Shown piece after piece: positions 9,088 to 62,220 of a stretch of 64,000 nucleotides of DNA (within the stretch, counting starts at the first letter, position 1; each line of letters opens with the position of its first letter). Location of the stretch: assembly GCA_024278765.1 (NCBI GenBank), contig JAJRSM010000048.1:2266-66265 (forward strand), read 5' to 3'. The notes beneath the pieces are model-generated. The model made no database searches. It saw nothing but the letters and a program-made list of their open reading frames with translations, and was not told the DNA's origin. Position numbers and translations under genes: made by a program. The stretch comes from Deltaproteobacteria bacterium (GTDB taxonomy: Bacteria > Desulfobacterota > GWC2-55-46 > DRQE01).

Positions 9088-11181
9088 CTACGATGGCATC
9101 GTCTCGCCAAGTGCCTCTTTTCTCGAGAGCCTGATCTTTCCGGCCCTATCGATCTCCAGACACTTTACAATAACCTCATCACCTTCTTTAAGGATATCGG
9201 TTACGTTCTCTACACGCTCTTCAGCTAGCTGCGATATATGAACAAGGCCGTCAGTACCCGGGAAGATCTCTACGAATGCGCCAAAGTCCATAATTTTACG
9301 GACAGTACCCATATAGAGCTTGCCTACCTCGGCTTCCTGCGTAAGGGCCTGAACCATCTTTATCGCCTTCTGCGCTGATTCCTCATCGCAAGAAGCAATA
9401 TTGACCTTACCTGTATCATCGATATCTATCTTTACGCCGGTCTCCTGAACAATACCCTTGATATTCTTACCGCCAGGGCCGATGACGTCTTTGATTTTTT
9501 CTGTCTTAACATAGATAGTAATTATCTTCGGAGCGTACTCGGACATCTCGGTCCTCGGTGCTGTTATAGCCTCTTCCATCTTTCCGAGGATATGGATACG
9601 TCCTTCCTTTGCCTGATAAAGGGCCTCGCGCATAAGCTCTGCGCTCACGCCACTTATCTTTATATCCATCTGCAGGGCACTGATGCCTTCTGCCGAACCA
9701 GCAACCTTAAAGTCCATATCTCCAAGATGATCCTCGTCACCGAGGATGTCAGACAATACAGAATAACGCTCGCCTTCCTTGATAAGTCCCATGGCGATTC
9801 CTGCTACGTGGCACTTTACCGGCACACCTGCGTCCATTAAGGATAGCGACGCACCACAGATCGATGCCATCGAAGAAGAACCATTTGATTCAAGTATATC
9901 AGAAACTACCCTTACCGTGTACGGGAACTCTTCTTCCTCACCCGGCATAGACTTTACGACTGCACGTTCTGCAAGAGCACCATGACCGATCTCGCGACGA
10001 CCAGGGCTGCGCATAAACCTTACCTCACCAACAGAGAATGGCGGGAAGTTATAGTGAAGCATAAACTTCTTATAGTCCCAGCCAGAAAGAGCATCTATCT
10101 TCTGCTCGTCATCACTGGTACCAAGCGTCGTGACAACAATTGCCTGCGTCTCGCCACGAGTAAAGAGTGCCGAACCATGGGTGCGGGGAAGTAGTCCTAC
10201 CTCACAAGTTATATCTCTTACCTGCCTGGAGTCTCTGCCGTCAACACGCACGCCTGTAGAAAGTATCGCCTCACGCATCGTCGTATATTTAAGTCTGCCA
10301 AAAGCAGCGGATACGTCAGAGCCACGGCCCTCAAACTCTTCTGCGAGCTCTGCCTTTAGATCGGCCTTTATCTCATCAAGCTTTGCGTAACGCTCCATCT
10401 TGGTTGCAATCTTAAGTGCACAGGCAAGCCTTTCTTCTGTAATCTCTTTTACACGTGCCTCAAGCACGGTATCGACCTCAGGCAGGACGACCTCGATAGC
10501 GGTCTTTCCGCTATCAGTGCGCATCTGCTCCTGGATGGCAAGCACTGGCTTCATGCTCTCCTGCGCAAAACCAAGGGCATCAATCATTACATCTTCGCTG
10601 AGGAAGTCAGCACCACCCTCGACCATCAAGATACCATCGGTAGCACCTGCGACCAAAAGATCAATATCGCTCTCTTTCTGCTGCTCTAGAGTTGGGTTGC
10701 AAATGAGGTTACCGTCGATACGTCCAACGCGGACAGCGGCTATCGGCTTTGTAAAAGGTATATCAGAGATGCGCAGAGCCATCGAGGCACCAACCAGTGC
10801 GCAAAGCTCTGGATCATGCTCGGTATCAGCACTCATTACGGTTGCGATAACCTGCGTCTCATGGGCATAGCCTTCTGCAAATAGAGGCCTTAAAGGCCTG
10901 TCTATCAGCCTTGAACAAAGCACTTCCTTTTCGCCCGGGCGGCCTTCACGCTTAAAGAATCCACCGGGGATCTTACCGGCTGCGTAACGCATCTCTACAT
11001 AGTTAACAGTTAAGGGAAGGAAATCTAGACCTTCTTTAGGCTGAGGTGCGCGACATGCCGTTACGAGCACGACCGTATCGCCGTACCTTACCGTAACCGA
11101 GCCGCCGGTCTGCCTTGCCATCTTACCGGTCTCTATCTTTAAAGTTCTTCCACCAAAATCTACTTCGTAATTTTTCACCAT
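9088..11181 (-). CDS. pnp: Polyribonucleotide nucleotidyltransferase (PNPase)
   Basis: 697 aa. Two RNase PH domains, KH and S1 domains (…[46 protein letters not shown]). Confidence 0.97.
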
Positions 11182-21377: not shown

Positions 21378-24143
21378 TCACATCAGCTCTATCTCAATCA
21401 AATTATCATTTCTGGGAATATAACTTCTCTCAATTGCAAACTCAACCAGCTTCTCCTGAATCTCACGATAATCAGAGTCCAGATTGCCCACTGCCATCAT
21501 CATTTGCAGGGCCTCGGCCTGCTCCCCTGCCTGATTATATGCAAGTGCCAACTCATACATAGCCCCGATCCTATCCTGATCACTCATCCCCTTTACAGCA
21601 AGTGCCTTTATATAAAAACCAACAGCATCAATGTACTTACCTATAGCTACAGCGCATTGGCCGAGTCTGGCATAAGAATTAAACTCAAAGGCAGCCTCTT
21701 TGGCAGAAAGCTTAAACTCTCTGATGGCATCGTCAAAGAGCTCCATCTCCATATAGGCTATTCCCAGATTAAAATGCGTCTCTACGTCTTCGCGGCTGAG
21801 TTGCTCACCCATCCCGGCCTTAAACTCCTCGACCATACCGCTTGACTCTTCGCTATCAGACCAACTATCGACCAATTGACCCAGAGCCTCTTCAATACCA
21901 AGCTCCTTGGTAAGATCGATAAAACCTTCGGACTCATCTTTTACATCGACACTCTTATCTTCCGATATAATCGCGCCGTCTTCATCACCGGATAACGCAA
22001 GTTCTTCTTCAGTAAAAATCTGCTCAACATGACCTGAGTCCTCCACACCTTCTTCTTCCGCCTCGTCGGAGTCCTCTGAGCCGACCGTAATAACCTCGGC
22101 CGCATCATCCTTAAATAACTCTTCCAGATCATACCCCCCCCCTTCAAGCAAGGCATCAATACCAGCCTCCTTCAAGGCCTCTTCAGGCTCTAAGGCCTCT
22201 TCAAGCTCTAAATCTATTGACACGGTCTCTAGATCTTCTGAAGGTGCATCAGAGTCTAGGTCATCTTCTTTCATAAAATCTTCTGAGATCTCAACCAAAT
22301 CTTCTTCCGTAGAGTCTAAGGCAGATTCATCCTCCTCAGAAACCTGATCATCAGGCTCTATAACCTGCTCTGGTGGCTCTACTGCCTCTTCAAGCTCCAA
22401 GGCCTCTTCAAGGTCTACAGCCAACTCCTCGGGCTCTAGCACCTCTTCAATCTCTAAACTATCAGCGTCATCCACAATCTCAAGCTCTTCTAGCTCTTCC
22501 ATCTCTGGCGACTCGTCTATATCTTCTAGTTCAATCTTCTGATCTTCTTCTAGTACTTCAGCTACATCTTCTTCAAACTCTGTAACCTCAGGCAGTTCGA
22601 TATCCCCATTCGAGATCTCAGCCCCTAACTGCTCCGCCTCAACCACCCCGGATGCCTCTTCAGACCCTACAGTCTCTTCCCCTACCTCGTCTTTAGGGCA
22701 GTCTATATCTAACTCAACGGACTCTTCTTGCTCATCAAGATCAAAATCTTCTTTAATCTCTACTTCTACCCGATCCTCTCCAGGCTCTATCGTCTTTTCC
22801 TCTGCCTCATCTTCCTTCTCATCAGGATCTAACTCGACAGACTTGCCCTCCAAGTCACTATCAAAATCAATATCTTCCTCAAGCTCTACTTCTGCCTCTT
22901 GTGACTCCAAGGCCGCTACGACCTCTTCAGACTCTGTAGCACCTTTACCCTCTTGCGTCTCTTCAGGAAGCTCATCCTCAAAATCGACCTCAAAGAACTC
23001 GTCTTCGCCATCGGCGTAATCAGAGTCAATCTCGTCTAGGTCAATATCAAAATAAAAATCTTCTTCAACCTCGGCTTCAGCCTCTTCAGGCTCTAAGGCC
23101 GCTTCAGGCTCTAAGGCCGCTTCAGGCTCTAAGGCCACTTCAGACTCTAAGGCCACTTCAGACTCTAAGGCCACTTCAGACTCTAAGGCCACTTCAGACT
23201 CTAAGGCCACTTCAGACTCTAAGGCTTCTTCTGCGGGTTCTTCATCCAGCGTCAGCTTAGAGACCACACTCTTTTCAAGGATCTCATCGATGGTAGCCTC
23301 TTCCACCTCGGCTTCTTCTTGTAAACCGCCAAGCTCGCTCTCAAACGCATCGCACAGGCCATCTATCATGGCTCTGGCCTTTTCATTGTCAGGAGCAGCC
23401 TCTAAAATAGCATGGCAAAGTGCCTCTAATTTATCCAGCTCACCAGCTTCTTTAAAAGCATCTATAAGCTCGCCGCCATAACTGGTAAATTTAGAGACGT
23501 CTTCTCTTTCTTTATTTATACCAACAAGCCCTTCCAGCACCCTCACGTCCTTTGGGTACTCGGCATAAAGATCATTTAAAATATTCTCGGCCTTCTCAAT
23601 CTTACCCTTAGCAAGGAACTTCTGAAAGATCCAGCAATAGAGATCCAGAGCGTCATCGCCGTAACCAAACTTCTTCTGCATATCAGCGAGCCTGATCTTT
23701 AACCCGGCATTCTCTGAGTCAATTTCGACCATCTTCTGCAAGAGCTCAAAGGCCTCGTTAGAGCGGCCCTTCTTTTCGTATGTATTGAGGATATAGCTGT
23801 ATTCACCGATGGCATCGGCAATAAGACGTTGCTTTGTGTAAAGATCGGCTAGTTTATTATGGATTTCCAGGTTGGTCTCGTCAAGCTTTAGTACCTGCTT
23901 GTAGACCGCGATGGCCTTTAGGTAAAAGCCCTTGCCGGTATTATACTTGGCAATACTGGTGTATTCCTTTATTGCCTCTTCCTTAAGACCTGTCTTAACA
24001 TATAACTCCCCAAGCCTGAGACGCAAAGAGATATCCGAAGGATCTAGTAAGACAATAGACTTATACTCGGCAATGGCCTTATCAAAGTACCCTTTAAGTA
24101 CAAACTTCTGGGCCTTCTCTATCTGTTTTTCCTTCTTTGCCAT
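21378..24143 (-). CDS. TPR-repeat protein with a roughly 450-aa hyper-acidic low-complexity core (ESEVAL and EPEAAL hexapeptide repeats)
   Basis: 921 aa. TPR-like helical repeats at both ends (YFDKAIAEYKSIVLLDP..., FNLGIAYMEMELFDDAIREFK...). The centre is dominated by E/D with perfect hexapeptide repeats. No transmembrane helix or signal peptide is visible. Confidence 0.8.
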   Translation of the reverse strand: MAKKEKQIEKAQKFVLKGYFDKAIAEYKSIVLLDPSDISLRLRLGELYVKTGLKEEAIKEYTSIAKYNTGKGFYLKAIAVYKQVLKLDETNLEIHNKLADLYTKQRLIADAIGEYSYILNTYEKKGRSNEAFELLQKMVEIDSENAGLKIRLADMQKKFGYGDDALDLYCWIFQKFLAKGKIEKAENILNDLYAEYPKDVRVLEGLVGINKEREDVSKFTSYGGELIDAFKEAGELDKLEALCHAILEAAPDNEKARAMIDGLCDAFESELGGLQEEAEVEEATIDEILEKSVVSKLTLDEEPAEEALESEVALESEVALESEVALESEVALESEVALEPEAALEPEAALEPEEAEAEVEEDFYFDIDLDEIDSDYADGEDEFFEVDFEDELPEETQEGKGATESEEVVAALESQEAEVELEEDIDFDSDLEGKSVELDPDEKEDEAEEKTIEPGEDRVEVEIKEDFDLDEQEESVELDIDCPKDEVGEETVGSEEASGVVEAEQLGAEISNGDIELPEVTEFEEDVAEVLEEDQKIELEDIDESPEMEELEELEIVDDADSLEIEEVLEPEELAVDLEEALELEEAVEPPEQVIEPDDQVSEEDESALDSTEEDLVEISEDFMKEDDLDSDAPSEDLETVSIDLELEEALEPEEALKEAGIDALLEGGGYDLEELFKDDAAEVITVGSEDSDEAEEEGVEDSGHVEQIFTEEELALSGDEDGAIISEDKSVDVKDESEGFIDLTKELGIEEALGQLVDSWSDSEESSGMVEEFKAGMGEQLSREDVETHFNLGIAYMEMELFDDAIREFKLSAKEAAFEFNSYARLGQCAVAIGKYIDAVGFYIKALAVKGMSDQDRIGAMYELALAYNQAGEQAEALQMMMAVGNLDSDYREIQEKLVEFAIERSYIPRNDNLIEIELM
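23080..23222. repeat. In-frame 18-bp tandem repeat, about 7.5 copies, inside the TPR/acidic gene
   Basis: ggccgcttcaggctctaa appears twice and ggccacttcagactctaa five times, plus partial copies. These encode (EPEAAL)2(ESEVAL)5 on the minus strand. Confidence 0.95.
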
Positions 24144-49642: not shown

Positions 49643-49742
49643 ATGGCTACGGACCATCCCAGATGGCTACGGACCACCCCAGGTGGCTTCGGACCATCCC
49701 AGATGGCTGCGGGCTATCTCAGATAGTTTCGGGCATATATTC
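49643..49742. repeat. 20-bp tandem direct repeat array, about 4-5 units
   Basis: atggctacggaccatcccag, atggctacggaccaccccag, gtggcttcggaccatcccag, atggctgcgggctatctcag, then a decaying copy. The core GATGG-N7-CCATC is palindromic. Confidence 0.9.
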
Positions 49743-54307: not shown

Positions 54308-54438
54308 AGATCACGATCTTTAGGCAATGCCACTGAAGACAATGCCGCTGGCCGGCCTGAATTTTAGTTGTTTTGTAAAGAGCTAAATAATACATCAATC
54401 TAACACATTACCGTCCTTAATTCCAACTGCAAAAAACC

Positions 54439-54471
54439 AAAAAAAACCCCATCGGAGATAGACCGAGAGGG
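54439..54471 (-). terminator. Putative intrinsic terminator after the M23 peptidase gene
   Basis: Minus-strand CCCUCUCGG...CCGAUGGGG stem of about 8 bp with one mismatch, followed by a U8 run (plus A8 at 54439-54446). Confidence 0.45.
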
Positions 54472-54587
54472 TTTATAATAGGCAACTACTTAATTTATTG
54501 TCATGATTGTTTTTTCCGATACGCCGTTTACGTCGCTTATCCCCTTTAACCCGTTATCCCCGTTTGCACATAAGCAGAGAGCCCTGC

Positions 54588-55986: not shown

Positions 55987-56691
55987 ATGAATGAAATTGC
56001 CTCGCACGGAAGAATCTGGGATATGGTCGTTGCGGCAGGACCAATGGTCAAGATGGTCTTGATCCTGCTGGTCGTCTTATCTATCGTCTCATGGGCTATT
56101 ATACTCTATAAAGTACTAATGCTGAGAAAGATAGAAAAAGACAGCTCCGCATACTACGACCTCTTCTGGCAGAAGAAAGACCTTGCGCATATGCTAAACG
56201 TAGCAAGCCAGTTTCCCTCTACCCCGATGACAAAACTCGTTAAAGGTGCTCACGACGAAGCAGCCCCGCTAATTAGCAAACTACGCGCTGGCTACGACGG
56301 CTCTGTAGTAGAAGAAGGTCTTGACTATATAGAACGAGTACTAAAAAAGACCATTACTATGGAACGTGCCGCAATGGAGAAGACAACGGCCTTTCTGGCC
56401 ACCACCGGCAGCACCGCACCATTTATCGGGCTCTTCGGTACGGTCTGGGGGATAATGAATACCTTCCGTGCCATTGGCACGCAAGGGGCGGCAAACCTGG
56501 CGGTCGTTGCCCCGGGTATCTCCGAGGCACTAATCGCCACAGCTCTTGGCCTTGTAGCTGCCATACCAGCTGTCGTCGGCTATAACTACATCATCTCTCG
56601 CACAGACAGGATAACAAAAGAGATGGAGGCCTTTAGCTCGGACCTGACCAATATACTGGAAAAATCGCTTAGGCACGCCTCTAAAAAATAA
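55987..56691 (+). CDS. tolQ: Tol-Pal system protein TolQ (MotA/TolQ/ExbB proton channel)
   Basis: Three transmembrane helices and the conserved TTGSTAPFIGLFGTVWGIM segment. Confidence 0.92.
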   Translation: MNEIASHGRIWDMVVAAGPMVKMVLILLVVLSIVSWAIILYKVLMLRKIEKDSSAYYDLFWQKKDLAHMLNVASQFPSTPMTKLVKGAHDEAAPLISKLRAGYDGSVVEEGLDYIERVLKKTITMERAAMEKTTAFLATTGSTAPFIGLFGTVWGIMNTFRAIGTQGAANLAVVAPGISEALIATALGLVAAIPAVVGYNYIISRTDRITKEMEAFSSDLTNILEKSLRHASKK

Positions 56692-56786
56692 TATAAAGGC
56701 TACCTCAACCAGCTCGGACCACTTAAGCGGCCTGAGCCACCGGGACGGATTTAAGCATTACAAGCCTATACCAAGGAAAAAGACCA

Positions 56787-57197
56787 ATGGCCGATAACAG
56801 AATGCTATCTAGTATTAACGTAACGCCTTTTGTGGATGTCATGCTGGTGCTACTCGTGATCTTTATGGTTACGACCCCTTTAATGGAGACAGGCATTGAC
56901 GTAAACCTGCCTGAAGTCGAGGCTGGCTCGGTCGAGGGTCGAGACGAACCCATTATAGTATCGGTCGATAAAAAAGGTGACGTCTTCATCAACAAAAAAA
57001 AGGTAAGCCTCAGTAAACTCAGAGGCAACCTTACCGCTATCGTAAAGAGAAGAAAAGACAAGACCGTCTACCTGAGAGCAGACGAAGCTGTCCCGTACGG
57101 CAAGGTAGCAAGAACAATGGCAACCATTCGCTCATCAGGGATAAAAAAGATAGCAATGATTACAGAAACTCCGACAGGTGGCAGTAACAGAAAATAA
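56787..57197 (+). CDS. tolR: Tol-Pal system protein TolR (ExbD/TolR family)
   Basis: INVTPFVDVMLVLLVIFMVT is the conserved transmembrane segment carrying the Asp. 136 aa. Confidence 0.92.
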   Translation: MADNRMLSSINVTPFVDVMLVLLVIFMVTTPLMETGIDVNLPEVEAGSVEGRDEPIIVSVDKKGDVFINKKKVSLSKLRGNLTAIVKRRKDKTVYLRADEAVPYGKVARTMATIRSSGIKKIAMITETPTGGSNRK

Positions 57198-57213
57198 CAG
57201 ATCAGCCACCCTA

Positions 57214-57385
57214 GATGGTTCAAGCCATCAGTCGATGGTTCAAGCCATCAGTCGATGGTTCAAGCCATCAGTCGATGGTTCAGGCCATCAGTCGATGGTT
57301 CAGGCCATCAGTCGATGGTTCAGGCCATCAGGCGATGGTTCAGGCCATCAGGCGATGGTTCAGGCCATCAGGCGATGGTTCAGGG
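57214..57385. repeat. 20-bp tandem direct repeat array, about 8.5 units, in the tolR-tolA intergenic region
   Basis: gatggttcaagccatcagtc x3, gatggttcaggccatcagtc x3, gatggttcaggccatcaggc x2 plus a partial copy. The core GATGG-N6-CCATC is palindromic. Variants appear in ordered blocks of three. Confidence 0.95.
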
Positions 57386-57441
57386 GCTACCTTAGCAGGT
57401 GACGGCTAAGGCCATTAAGGTCAGGTGGCAGGAGTTCTGGT

Positions 57442-58404
57442 TTGCAAAGCATACTCAACCAACAACAACCCGGGCTAAAGAAGTTTATTACAGCCTCGGT
57501 CATCATACATATAATAATACTCTTTCTCGGGCTCTTCTTTGCCAAGACCAATCCAGCCAGAGTCCTCTCGGCACCAACCTACACAACGGTAGAGCTAGTC
57601 TCGCCGCCTGCCAGGAGGGGTTCGTCAAAAAAAAGAACCGCCAGCAAACGCATCCTGAAAAAACCAGCTCCAATTAAAAACACCGCAAAGGCCACCAAGC
57701 CTGCCACCTCAAAAAAAGTAAGAATTAAAAAAACAACAAAAGTAAGAGCCAAAAAGACCTCGACCAAGGTCATCATACCCGGCACAACAAAGGCCAAGCC
57801 CACCACCACCGCCCAAAAGATCAAAGAGCTTGACAGCGTAAGTGCTGCTATCGCAGCGCTTCAGCAAACAGAGACCGAACGCTCAGAGGATGAACTCATA
57901 GAGCAGCGCATACAGGAGCTTGCCGGTAATACGCAGAGCCAGGCGGATATAGACGACGAGTTGGCAGGGCTCAGGGCCGAGATACTAGAGAACGGGATAA
58001 GCGTAGACGTATTTTCCGGGGATCTGGCTGGAGATCAGGCAGGTGCCGGCAGACCAGACGGCACTGGGGTAAGGTTCGGTGGCGGGTCGAGTTCAGTCAA
58101 TATAAATCAACTCGATATAGCATTTATAGAGTACTATAATACGGTAGGTTCGATGGTACGCTCGGAGTGGATCTTCCCGGGCCAGGCCGTACCTGGGCTC
58201 CAGGCCATCGTTACGATAAAGATAGCGCCTGACGGAAAGCTCTTGGCAATGAGAGTAGAACGCGCCTCAGGCAATACCCTCTTTGATCAATCTGCGATAA
58301 AGGCAGTTGAGAAGGTCGGTGATTTTCCGCCCCTGCCTGAAGATATCGACAAAGATTACCTTGAGATAGGAATACGATTTTGTCCCGGAGGTTGCAAACA
58401 ATAA
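57442..58404 (+). CDS. tolA: Tol-Pal system protein TolA
   Basis: N-terminal transmembrane anchor, a K/A/T-rich extended region, and a C-terminal TonB/TolA domain. Confidence 0.85.
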   Translation: MQSILNQQQPGLKKFITASVIIHIIILFLGLFFAKTNPARVLSAPTYTTVELVSPPARRGSSKKRTASKRILKKPAPIKNTAKATKPATSKKVRIKKTTKVRAKKTSTKVIIPGTTKAKPTTTAQKIKELDSVSAAIAALQQTETERSEDELIEQRIQELAGNTQSQADIDDELAGLRAEILENGISVDVFSGDLAGDQAGAGRPDGTGVRFGGGSSSVNINQLDIAFIEYYNTVGSMVRSEWIFPGQAVPGLQAIVTIKIAPDGKLLAMRVERASGNTLFDQSAIKAVEKVGDFPPLPEDIDKDYLEIGIRFCPGGCKQ

Positions 58405-59870: not shown

Positions 59871-60845
59871 TTGAAAAAGGTGACTAACTTGAAAAAGACT
59901 ATTTTATCTTTAGCACTGGTGGCAATATTCGTTCTTGGTTGTTTTGACTACAGCTCGGCCCTAACCATTAAAAGGAAATCTCTTAGAAAGACAGTCGAAG
60001 AGATGGGGTTGCAGGTCAAAGCAGGGGCTGAAAGAAACGAACGGGCCGACGGCGCGATAGCAGATATAGGTGCGGATATAGATGTAATGCGCCAAGACCT
60101 GACGACCATGAACGGACAGCTTGAGGAAAAGGTATTTGATATGGAGCAGCTACGCGAGAATATCGATTTGCTGAGCCAGACCCTACAGAGACTGGAAGAG
60201 AGAATAAAGGCTCTAGAGACTCCTTCGCAGGATGCCATTAATAAAGAGATCAACGAGGCCCTGCAAAAGGAAGAACAAGAAAAAGCTCAGGCCGAGTTGT
60301 TCGCCTCACTAAAGACCGCTATCGAGGCACTTATCATAAGAGTTGATGCCATAGACGGTCTGGACGAAGACAGCGCAACCAAAGAGACCAATACAAAAAA
60401 GGACTCGACAATAACAGATCAATATATGACAGGGCTCGACCTCGTACGGGTAAAGAAAGACTACGCAAAGGCATTAATAGTCTTCAAGAGCTTTCTTAAG
60501 GAAAACCCCAAGCACGAACTGGCAGACAATGCCCGCTACTGGATCGGCGAGATACACTACGTACGCGGTGAATTCGGCAAGGCAGTCCTAGAGTTTAATA
60601 AGGTAATCAAAAATCACCCCGACGGCGATAAGGTCGCCGCCGCGATACTAAAACAGAGCTACTCCTTTGAAAAGCTCGGCTCTACAAAAGAAGCAGGCAT
60701 GCTTCTAAGAAAGGTCATCAAGAAGTATCCTAATAGCACCGAGGCTGAGATAGCCAAAGAACACCTAGAGAATCTCAAAAAAAAGAAGGAAACTATAAAG
60801 CCTGAGAAGGCAGTAGAACCTGCGAAGGCAGCTGGGGATAAGTAG
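59871..60845 (+). CDS. cpoB: Tol-Pal system protein CpoB/YbgF (coiled-coil plus C-terminal TPR)
   Basis: Signal peptide or lipobox, a coiled coil of about 100 aa, and a C-terminal TPR (ARYWIGEIHYVRGEFGKAVLEFNKVIKNHP). Confidence 0.75.
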   Translation: MKKVTNLKKTILSLALVAIFVLGCFDYSSALTIKRKSLRKTVEEMGLQVKAGAERNERADGAIADIGADIDVMRQDLTTMNGQLEEKVFDMEQLRENIDLLSQTLQRLEERIKALETPSQDAINKEINEALQKEEQEKAQAELFASLKTAIEALIIRVDAIDGLDEDSATKETNTKKDSTITDQYMTGLDLVRVKKDYAKALIVFKSFLKENPKHELADNARYWIGEIHYVRGEFGKAVLEFNKVIKNHPDGDKVAAAILKQSYSFEKLGSTKEAGMLLRKVIKKYPNSTEAEIAKEHLENLKKKKETIKPEKAVEPAKAAGDK

Positions 60846-62105: not shown

Positions 62106-62220
62106 GTCTGTCCATGACAGTTTGATCCGCCCACGGCGGTTTTGATCCGTCCACGACGGTTTTGGTCCGTCCACGGCGATTTTGATCCGTCCACGGCGAT
62201 TTTGATCCGCCACGACAGTT
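62106..62220. repeat. 20-bp tandem direct repeat array, about 5.5 units, directly abutting the asmA ribosome-binding site
   Basis: tttgatccgcccacggcggt, tttgatccgtccacgacggt, tttggtccgtccacggcgat, tttgatccgtccacggcgat, tttgatccgccacgacagt. The array ends 1 nt before GGAG at 62221-62224 and the TTG at 62231. Confidence 0.9.

Follow-up and report, generated by a model that had tools for sequence, protein, structure and literature searches.

A hairpin minisatellite in the tolR-tolA spacer of a Deltaproteobacteria bacterium, probably a recent slippage expansion of a conserved stem-loop

The window analysed here, a stretch of 64,000 nucleotides, carries a tol cluster in which an M23 peptidase gene is divergent from a run of genes for TolQ, TolR, TolA, TolB, a CpoB-like TPR protein and DUF362. 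A Pfam scan, which covered nine genes near the arrays described below, identifies tolQ (55987-56691, plus strand; MotA/TolQ/ExbB family, PF01618, E = 5.6e-37) and tolR (56787-57197, plus strand; ExbD/TolR family, PF02472, E = 7.7e-33), whose TAA stop codon occupies 57195-57197. The tolA-type gene (57442-58404, plus strand) is recognised by its TonB_2/TonB_C C-terminal domain in Pfam and by its homologues (P0001-P0012). It starts with TTG at 57442, with AGGAG 8 nt upstream; all relatives have GTG or ATG at the aligned position. A first reading of this DNA, made from the sequence only, took tolR and tolA to be normally separated by a few bases. This is not the case, as the gap measures 64 bp in E. 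coli K-12 and 32-148 bp in relatives from this clade of uncultured Desulfobacterota.

The 244-nt tolR-tolA spacer of the window contains a tandem array of 171 bp (57214-57384, plus strand). Tandem Repeats Finder (TRF) assigns it a period of 20, 8.6 copies, 98% matches, a score of 300 and the consensus unit GATGGTTCAGGCCATCAGTC, in agreement with the earlier description of about 8.5 head-to-tail 20-bp units filling a 244-bp gap. A degenerate first unit (AGCCACC-CTA-GATGGTT-CA; 57204-57222, plus strand), which has one stem mismatch and is a covariance-model match of 22.5 bits, precedes the annotated start of the array. In the comparison with relatives the window counts ~9.5 units, 98% identical to each other. 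Motif searches find the 16-nt core GATGGTTCARGCCATC eight times within the array; shuffles of the window contain on average 0.36 matches to this 16-mer, and none of 100 shuffles reaches 10. The units abut with no unique spacers between them, and so the array lacks the make-up of a CRISPR array, in which repeats of 23-50 bp are separated by unique spacers.

Variant units are arranged in blocks. Variant a (..CAAGCCATCAGTC) occurs three times, variant b (..CAGGCCATCAGTC) twice and variant c (..CAGGCCATCAGGC) three times, after which an 11-nt partial unit ends the array at 57384. In the other reading register, the same stretch consists of (A/G)GCCATC-AG(T/G)C-GATGGTT-CA units at 57223-57382. The order a-a-a-b-b-c-c-c is thus 3+2+3, rather than the 3+3+3 blocks originally perceived. 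Expansion by duplication of 60 bp, as proposed with those blocks, would leave the variants interleaved, and no 60-bp period is reported by TRF. Identical neighbouring units in blocks instead indicate slippage by single 20-bp units. Nor do all copies lie on one face of the helix as had been supposed, since 20 bp corresponds to 1.9 turns of B-DNA and successive units drift by ~34 degrees.

The two ends of the spacer are kept everywhere in the spacer comparison, with AAATAAC.GA after tolR and GGCAGGAGTTCTGGT(G/A/T)TG at tolA. Directly after the tolR stop codon lies a 5' outer arm, CAGAUC-AGCCACC (57198-57210, plus strand), which is predicted from minimum free energy (MFE) structures and the spacer comparison to pair with 57424-57439 (plus strand). 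The latter segment holds the 3' outer arm GGUGGC (57424-57429), the Shine-Dalgarno sequence (SD) AGGAG (57430-57434) and UCUG (57436-57439). The AGCCRYC 5' arm is conserved in all relatives, and the block GGCAGGAGTTCTGG at 57424-57439 is invariant in all of them.

What lies between these ends differs among the eleven further assemblies across which the spacer was compared. The closest public contig belongs to a Thermodesulfobacteriota/Desulfobacterota MAG (TolB 90% identical, DNA ~89-90% identical), and one more distant relative comes from a hydrothermal-vent metagenome. In L029, whose TolA is 57% identical to that of the window, the spacer is 32 nt long and consists of a single hairpin, AGCCGTC-CGA-GGCGGC, directly 5' of AGGAG. 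Four relatives with 62-68% TolA identity (L008, L009, L010 and L028) have a G+C-rich, structured spacer of 75 nt. The spacer of L006 (TolA 81%) has 148 nt and five to six degenerate units of ~20 nt, while that of L005 (TolA 85%) has 92 nt and ~3 GATGG/CCATC units, two of which form an inverted doublet. Three independent assemblies of a sister species (L001, L004 and L020; DNA ~89-90% identical to that of the window, TolA 88% in L004) have a spacer of 97 nt with two units, GATGGTTAAAGCCATC. The L005 doublet (9909-10000) is exact, CCATCGTTGATGGCC ... GGCCATCAACGATGG, and makes a REPIN-like hairpin of ~20 bp.

The array therefore shows the VNTR behaviour for which a comparison with relatives had been suggested (1, 2, 3 and 5-6 units, against ~9 in the window), and with 8.6 versus 2 copies between flanks that are ~90% identical it has the properties of a bacterial VNTR or minisatellite. 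Because relatives carry the unit at the tolR-tolA site in other numbers, the long array is a young slippage expansion. It had been described as inserted between tolR and tolA; in fact the unit is ancestral at the site and only its copy number is new. The sequence-only reading also held that absence from close genomes with the same flanks would mark the array as a recent slippage artefact. The long array is indeed absent from genomes with near-identical flanks, but the unit itself is conserved there. As judged from the aligned spacers, the ancestral state is shown to be one hairpin, AGCCGUC-CGA-GGCGGC, directly 5' of AGGAG, and by the same comparison the long array postdates a split of ~10% nucleotide divergence. 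A separate hairpin, CCUUAGC-AGGUGACG-GCUAAGG (as DNA, CCTTAGC-AGGTGACG-GCTAAGG), is predicted between the array and the tolA SD (57390-57411, plus strand) from the MFE structure and the alignment to L001. Its 5' arm falls within GGCTACCTTAGC, a stretch of 13 nt that the sister species lacks, and consequently the window differs from L001 by more than copy number.

The array is not the only one of its kind in the window. Its units belong to a clade-specific superfamily of 19-21-nt stem-loops with the form (A)RCCRYC - loop 3-4 - GRYGG(T/A)T - CA. A second array, AGCCAYC-TGG-GRTGGTC-CGN (49643-49734, minus strand; x4.4 and period 20 by TRF, 19-20.5 bits by the covariance model), extends from the stop codon of a HEPN gene and lies upstream of a prepilin peptidase gene; one of its units has a compensatory CCACC/GGTGG stem. 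A third (62121-62214, minus strand; x4.8 and period 20 by TRF) lies between the DUF362 gene and an AsmA/YhdP-like gene, and ends ~10 nt before GGAG and a TTG start; in L001 the copy number is different by two units. Both of these arrays occupy spacers whose flanking genes are co-directional. The superfamily model recognises the units of the third array antisense to the genes (18.6-19.9 bits on the minus strand versus 12-14 bits on the plus strand), and L011 has a sense version at that site. The corresponding scores for the 57214 array are 21-23 bits on the plus strand and 10-12 bits on the minus strand.

The model was built from 30 aligned units, with the 62121 units excluded from training, and was run unfiltered over the window. 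Every match with E < 0.1 falls inside the three arrays, including the untrained one at 62121, and no single dispersed units were found at this threshold in the other ~51 kb of the window. The three arrays lie within 13 kb. Relatives also carry arrays of 18-21-nt units in their HEPN-pilD, DUF362-asmA, tolQ-tolR and secA-M23 spacers, so that their units occupy five spacer classes of one neighbourhood, with a unit sequence that depends on the species. The secA-M23 peptidase spacer of the window (54308-54587, minus strand) has in addition a conserved terminator-like hairpin with a T-run, AAACCCTCTCGG...CCGATGGGGTTTTTTTT. It is followed by a block of ~60 nt, TTGCAGTTGGAATTAAGGACGGTAATGTGTTAGATT, that is conserved in all relatives and may be the M23 promoter or leader.

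When a collection of metagenomes was scanned for pairs of adjacent units, the expanded array did not turn up a second time, and L020 was the only further genomic site with the unit. Of the 15 loci that matched the pattern, L020 is the one tolR-tolA spacer; the others were put down to an unrelated 21-bp repeat or to coincidental matches within coding sequence. On two unrelated metagenome contigs (L024 503-531 and L025 2265-2293), four 21-bp direct repeats with a GATGG...CCATC dyad, GATGGTCAGTTGCCATCCGTC twice and then GATGGACTTTTTCCATCCGTC twice, sit just upstream of a divergently oriented gene. These look iteron-like or operator-like and are unrelated to the tol locus.

Exact-protein look-ups with TolR, TolA and TolQ found no second assembly of the window strain. 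The one TolA identical to that of the window lies on a 68.6-kb NCBI contig, and the source is probably a metagenome-derived contig, so that the exact copy number could be an assembly estimate. That the copy number or the whole expansion is an artefact of short reads assembled through a repeat nevertheless seems to us barely credible. The usual error of assembly is collapse, not expansion, and the two other arrays of the window also differ from relatives by whole units. Further, the ordered variants a3 b2 c3 leave <=60 identical bases and so break the array into stretches that ordinary k-mers or reads can span.

Comparison of units across sites indicates what has been conserved in them. Our covariation set, chosen by eye, drew 30 distinct units from eight assemblies and five classes of spacer. 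In this set 85.7% of cells are paired, against 15-47% in controls with the partner shifted by 1-3 columns. At pair 5:15 we count 17 A-U, 11 G-C, 2 G-U and no unpaired units, and at pair 6:14 we count 16 U-A, 6 C-G and 7 C.A. In 500 shuffles neither the observed covariation score nor the percentage paired was attained. These statistics are generous because the units were picked by eye and those within an array share descent. Four stem versions occur (CCATC/GATGG, CCACC/GGTGG, CCGTC/GACGG and CCGCC/GGCGG), some of them inside single arrays such as the tolQ-tolR array of L008 and the HEPN array of the window. Compensatory substitutions (A-U to G-C) preserve the palindromic core of 5 bp, while loops and linkers drift. 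Compensatory stem changes together with variable loops and linkers suggest a structural constraint on a single strand, not a double-stranded recognition sequence. The evidence points to a constraint on single-strand structure in either RNA or single-stranded DNA, and the inner five pairs show no sense-strand wobble bias (6 G.U vs 10 C.A).

As RNA, each unit is predicted to form a hairpin with a stem of 6-7 bp, which answers the suggestion that the array be folded. The unit hairpin GAUGGU-UCAG-GCCAUC has a predicted energy of -7.7 kcal/mol, and the hairpin that crosses unit boundaries, (A/G)GCCAUC-AGUC-GAUGGUU, one of -8.0 to -8.1 kcal/mol, compared with -5.9 kcal/mol for the antisense. These two registers are equally supported by the heterogeneous arrays. 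The full spacer folds far better than its shuffles (MFE -114.8 kcal/mol, z = -8.5), and its ensemble is highly diffuse, as every 5' arm has every 3' arm as a possible partner. For the tolR-tolA spacer, sense RNA exceeded antisense RNA in stability in six of six species, in a comparison that used mononucleotide shuffles.

These features bear on the suggestion that the array provides iteron-like protein-binding sites, with a dimeric DNA-binding protein on GATGG-N6-CCATC every 20 bp repressing or organising the tol operon. Plasmid iterons are likewise direct repeats of ~20 bp at regular spacing. Their sequence is conserved, they are located at replication origins or promoters, and the cognate Rep protein is encoded close by. 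The perfect dyads of the array are regularly spaced, and the GATGG-N6-CCATC dyad recurs in the HEPN-pilD spacer of both the window and L005, as binding sites might. Unlike iterons, however, the units drift in sequence under a pairing constraint: the stem exists in four versions, altered by compensatory substitutions, and loops and linkers vary. From one to nine copies occupy the same site, the spacer has no promoter to regulate, and the 20-bp period puts each unit out of helical phase with the last. This is an intercistronic segment of a chromosome whose neighbours are tol, secA, argJ, pilD and DUF362 genes, with no Rep gene adjacent and no dedicated regulator gene adjoining the arrays. We conclude that the array is a hairpin minisatellite and not a protein-binding iteron array; a regulatory role of the kind just described is highly improbable.

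MFE structures of the window, L001, L006 and L028 share an outer-arm helix in which AGCCACC (57204-57210) and CAGA pair with GGUGGC and UCUG. One pair of this helix is A-U in the window, L001, L005 and L020, A.C in L006, and G-C in L008, L010, L028 and L029; no covariation is seen in the CAGA/UCUG part. The outer helix and the single hairpin of L029 together suggest that the array grew by duplication inside an ancestral stem-loop running from stop codon to SD. The predicted folds indicate that the array is an apical insert of a closed RNA domain whose base is unchanged. Complementarity of the outer arms is, however, automatic for any tandem array of a palindromic unit.

Searches for established features returned little. 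There are no Rfam matches in the window at gathering thresholds, in line with the earlier statement that no annotated feature type explains the array; searching the spacer by E-value gave only spurious microRNA-precursor matches within the array, far below threshold. ARAGORN found no tRNA or tmRNA. A likeness of GAUGG-UUCAAG-CCAUC to a T-arm was dropped, as the loop has 6 nt and ARAGORN is silent, and a CsrA/RsmA sponge was rejected, as the unit lacks a GGA motif. ORFs of 46-74 aa cross the array in all three plus-strand frames, and a coding reading was also rejected, since with a 20-bp period that is not a multiple of 3 such ORFs are by-products of the repeat. No sigma-70-like promoter was found in the tolR-tolA spacer, and no terminator-like site on the plus strand of 56692-57441, where each unit is followed by CA and the next stem and not by a U-run. 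As the genes are co-directional members of one cluster, with no promoter or terminator in or near the array, the array is very probably transcribed with tolQRA, as had been supposed when it was placed inside the tol transcription unit.

We consider it reasonably likely that the array is a hairpin minisatellite produced by recent 20-bp slippage expansion of a stem-loop kept between the tolR stop codon and the tolA SD, probably with an effect on expression like the tuning exerted by REP clusters. The tolQRA mRNA would carry the array as a string of 6-7-bp hairpins or as interchangeable nested pairings. With its outermost arms still able to pair, the array would form an apical expansion segment that leaves the geometry from stop codon to SD little changed. 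By stopping 3'-to-5' exonucleases and impeding read-through or re-initiation to some degree, its hairpins would favour expression of tolQ-tolR over that of tolA. TolQ and TolR are needed in excess over TolA (~4-6:2:1), and a hairpin barrier at the tolR-tolA junction would make sense for this reason. Copy number would then be a coarse tunable dial of little selective weight. We speculate that a terminating ribosome would melt the ancestral single hairpin, which begins 4-6 nt past the stop codon and reaches to the SD, and that the hairpin could in this way contribute to translational coupling as well. A precedent for such an arrangement is the REP325 cluster in the yjdM-yjdN spacer of E. coli, which terminates transcription in part and stabilises the mRNA upstream of it; across the genome, REPs that lie between tandem genes are accompanied by upstream-biased expression (bioRxiv 10.64898/2026.03.23.713779).

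A stronger effect, in which the array is a transcription attenuator or terminator that separates tolQR from tolAB, is improbable. The mRNA would contain a string of stable hairpins, and REP clusters in E. coli can cause partial, Rho-dependent termination (bioRxiv 10.64898/2026.03.23.713779). Yet no hairpin is followed by a U-run, the scan of the plus strand of the spacer finds no terminator, and the sister species manages with 2 units. Since the spacer has no promoter-like site for tolA, strong termination would abolish expression of TolA, TolB and CpoB. Of the earlier proposal that small RNA hairpins attenuate tolA-tolB, the hairpins are retained as predictions, while attenuation in the form of a strong terminator is made improbable by the missing U-run and tolA promoter.

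Two facts qualify a functional interpretation of the expansion itself. Copy number is not conserved, so the long array may be neutral, and the third array, at 62121, is antisense to its genes, making it a poor fit to an RNA function. The main rival reading, conceivable if on balance unlikely, is that the units are selfish, REP/REPIN-like mobile or self-amplifying DNA hairpins without a role in tol expression. Their palindrome would persist either because slippage is driven by hairpins in single-stranded DNA or because these are recognised by a transposase such as RAYT. Consistent with this, the superfamily occupies five spacers in both orientations (antisense at 62121, sense in L011), the inverted doublet of L005 resembles a REPIN, the core pairs without wobble bias towards the sense strand, copy number turns over rapidly, and the lineage also expands 18-bp coding repeats. 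Against it, the stems lack the unpaired GTAG or CGTC tag that flanks a REP stem (PMC3733652), CGTC and GTAG being present only inside some stems and loops, and there are no singletons in the ~51 kb of the window outside the arrays. In addition, arrays are found at orthologous positions down to 55-57% TolA identity, with outer arms that stay in place beside the stop codon and the SD, as if a constrained site were being inherited vertically.

Set beside known systems, the preferred hairpin minisatellite would work like one family and looks like another. Like REP/BIME elements, the units are small extragenic palindromes that form RNA hairpins after a stop codon between co-directional genes, in clusters with strain-variable copy number, and REP elements also vary in sequence while keeping their structure (PMC3733652). 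With 19-21 nt and a 5-7-bp stem, all in spacers, they reach only the lower limit of the 20-40 bp of such palindromes. They differ from REP elements in being shorter, untagged and strictly head-to-tail, without the alternating orientation of BIMEs and REPINs except in the single inverted doublet of L005. They also have no dispersed single copies in 64 kb, and no RAYT is known for them (as far as the Pfam scan of nine genes near the arrays extends).

The MIRU-VNTRs of mycobacteria are reportedly tandem direct repeats in intercistronic operon spacers, in one orientation and with polymorphic copy number; MIRUs are said to measure 46-101 bp and to contain small ORFs overlapping the flanking stop and start codons, and not to be simple hairpins. 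The array resembles them as an intercistronic series of direct tandem repeats whose copy number is polymorphic between close relatives. It differs in that the unit is a 20-bp stem-loop, with a period that is not a multiple of 3 and no embedded mini-ORFs. We conclude that the array would act in the manner of a REP/BIME cluster and has the appearance of an intercistronic VNTR of the MIRU type, and belongs to neither group. In the same phylum, short multicopy elements between genes make up many families in Geobacter metallireducens, among them palindrome-containing predicted RNA elements and tandem 7-8-nt repeats (PMC2700814). As described, these are set apart by other unit sequences and periods, and no 20-nt hairpin arrays are reported among them (PMC2700814). 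The literature searched contained nothing specific on tolR-tolA repeats or 20-nt hairpin arrays in Desulfobacterota.

A more ambitious version of the RNA interpretation is also worth stating, doubtful as we consider it. The units may constitute a hitherto undescribed class of clade-specific cis-acting RNA modules, perhaps read by a dedicated RNA-binding protein or RNase, in which slippage changes the number of copies and so adjusts translational coupling and the stability of mRNA segments in envelope-maintenance operons. Such modules may lie between a stop codon or leader and the next ribosome-binding site in the tolQ-tolR, tolR-tolA, secA-M23, HEPN-pilD and DUF362-asmA spacers.

If the number of hairpins tunes the ratio of tolQR to tolA, the array would represent natural tuning of expression by a slippage-prone RNA array in an essential envelope operon. 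It would also provide a REP-like system of direct tandem repeats in a phylum where such elements have hardly been described. If the array is neutral, it would still be a useful VNTR for strain typing. In either case the relatives offer an evolutionary series of 1 to 2 to 6 to 9 hairpins, in which an intercistronic stem-loop grows into a minisatellite, and a clade-wide habit of setting such hairpins just upstream of ribosome-binding sites. For annotation, the message is the same either way: the array is neither a set of binding sites nor a new gene.

Repeats with an 18-bp period also occur in the neighbourhood. The CpoB-like TPR protein ranges from 324 to ~463 aa among relatives (window 59871-60845; L001 5869-7260; L006 8224-9408; L008 6745-7947). 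This is due to K/P/E/A-rich repeats of 18 bp close to the C-terminus, which give the operon a further fast-evolving repeat, in this case a coding one. In L010 (13355-13521 and 14673-14779), the 18-bp array that directly follows the DUF362 stop codon is the reverse complement of the 18-bp coding repeat which the cpoB-like gene, 1.15 kb upstream, carries at its 3' end; two inverted copies of one 18-bp minisatellite therefore flank the DUF362 gene. Elsewhere in the window, an ORF on the minus strand (21378-24143) encodes an extremely acidic TPR-containing protein of 921 aa, in which an 18-bp repeat (23080-23225; x8, 97% matches) codes for (ALESEV)n and further 18-bp repeats lie at 22174-22422.
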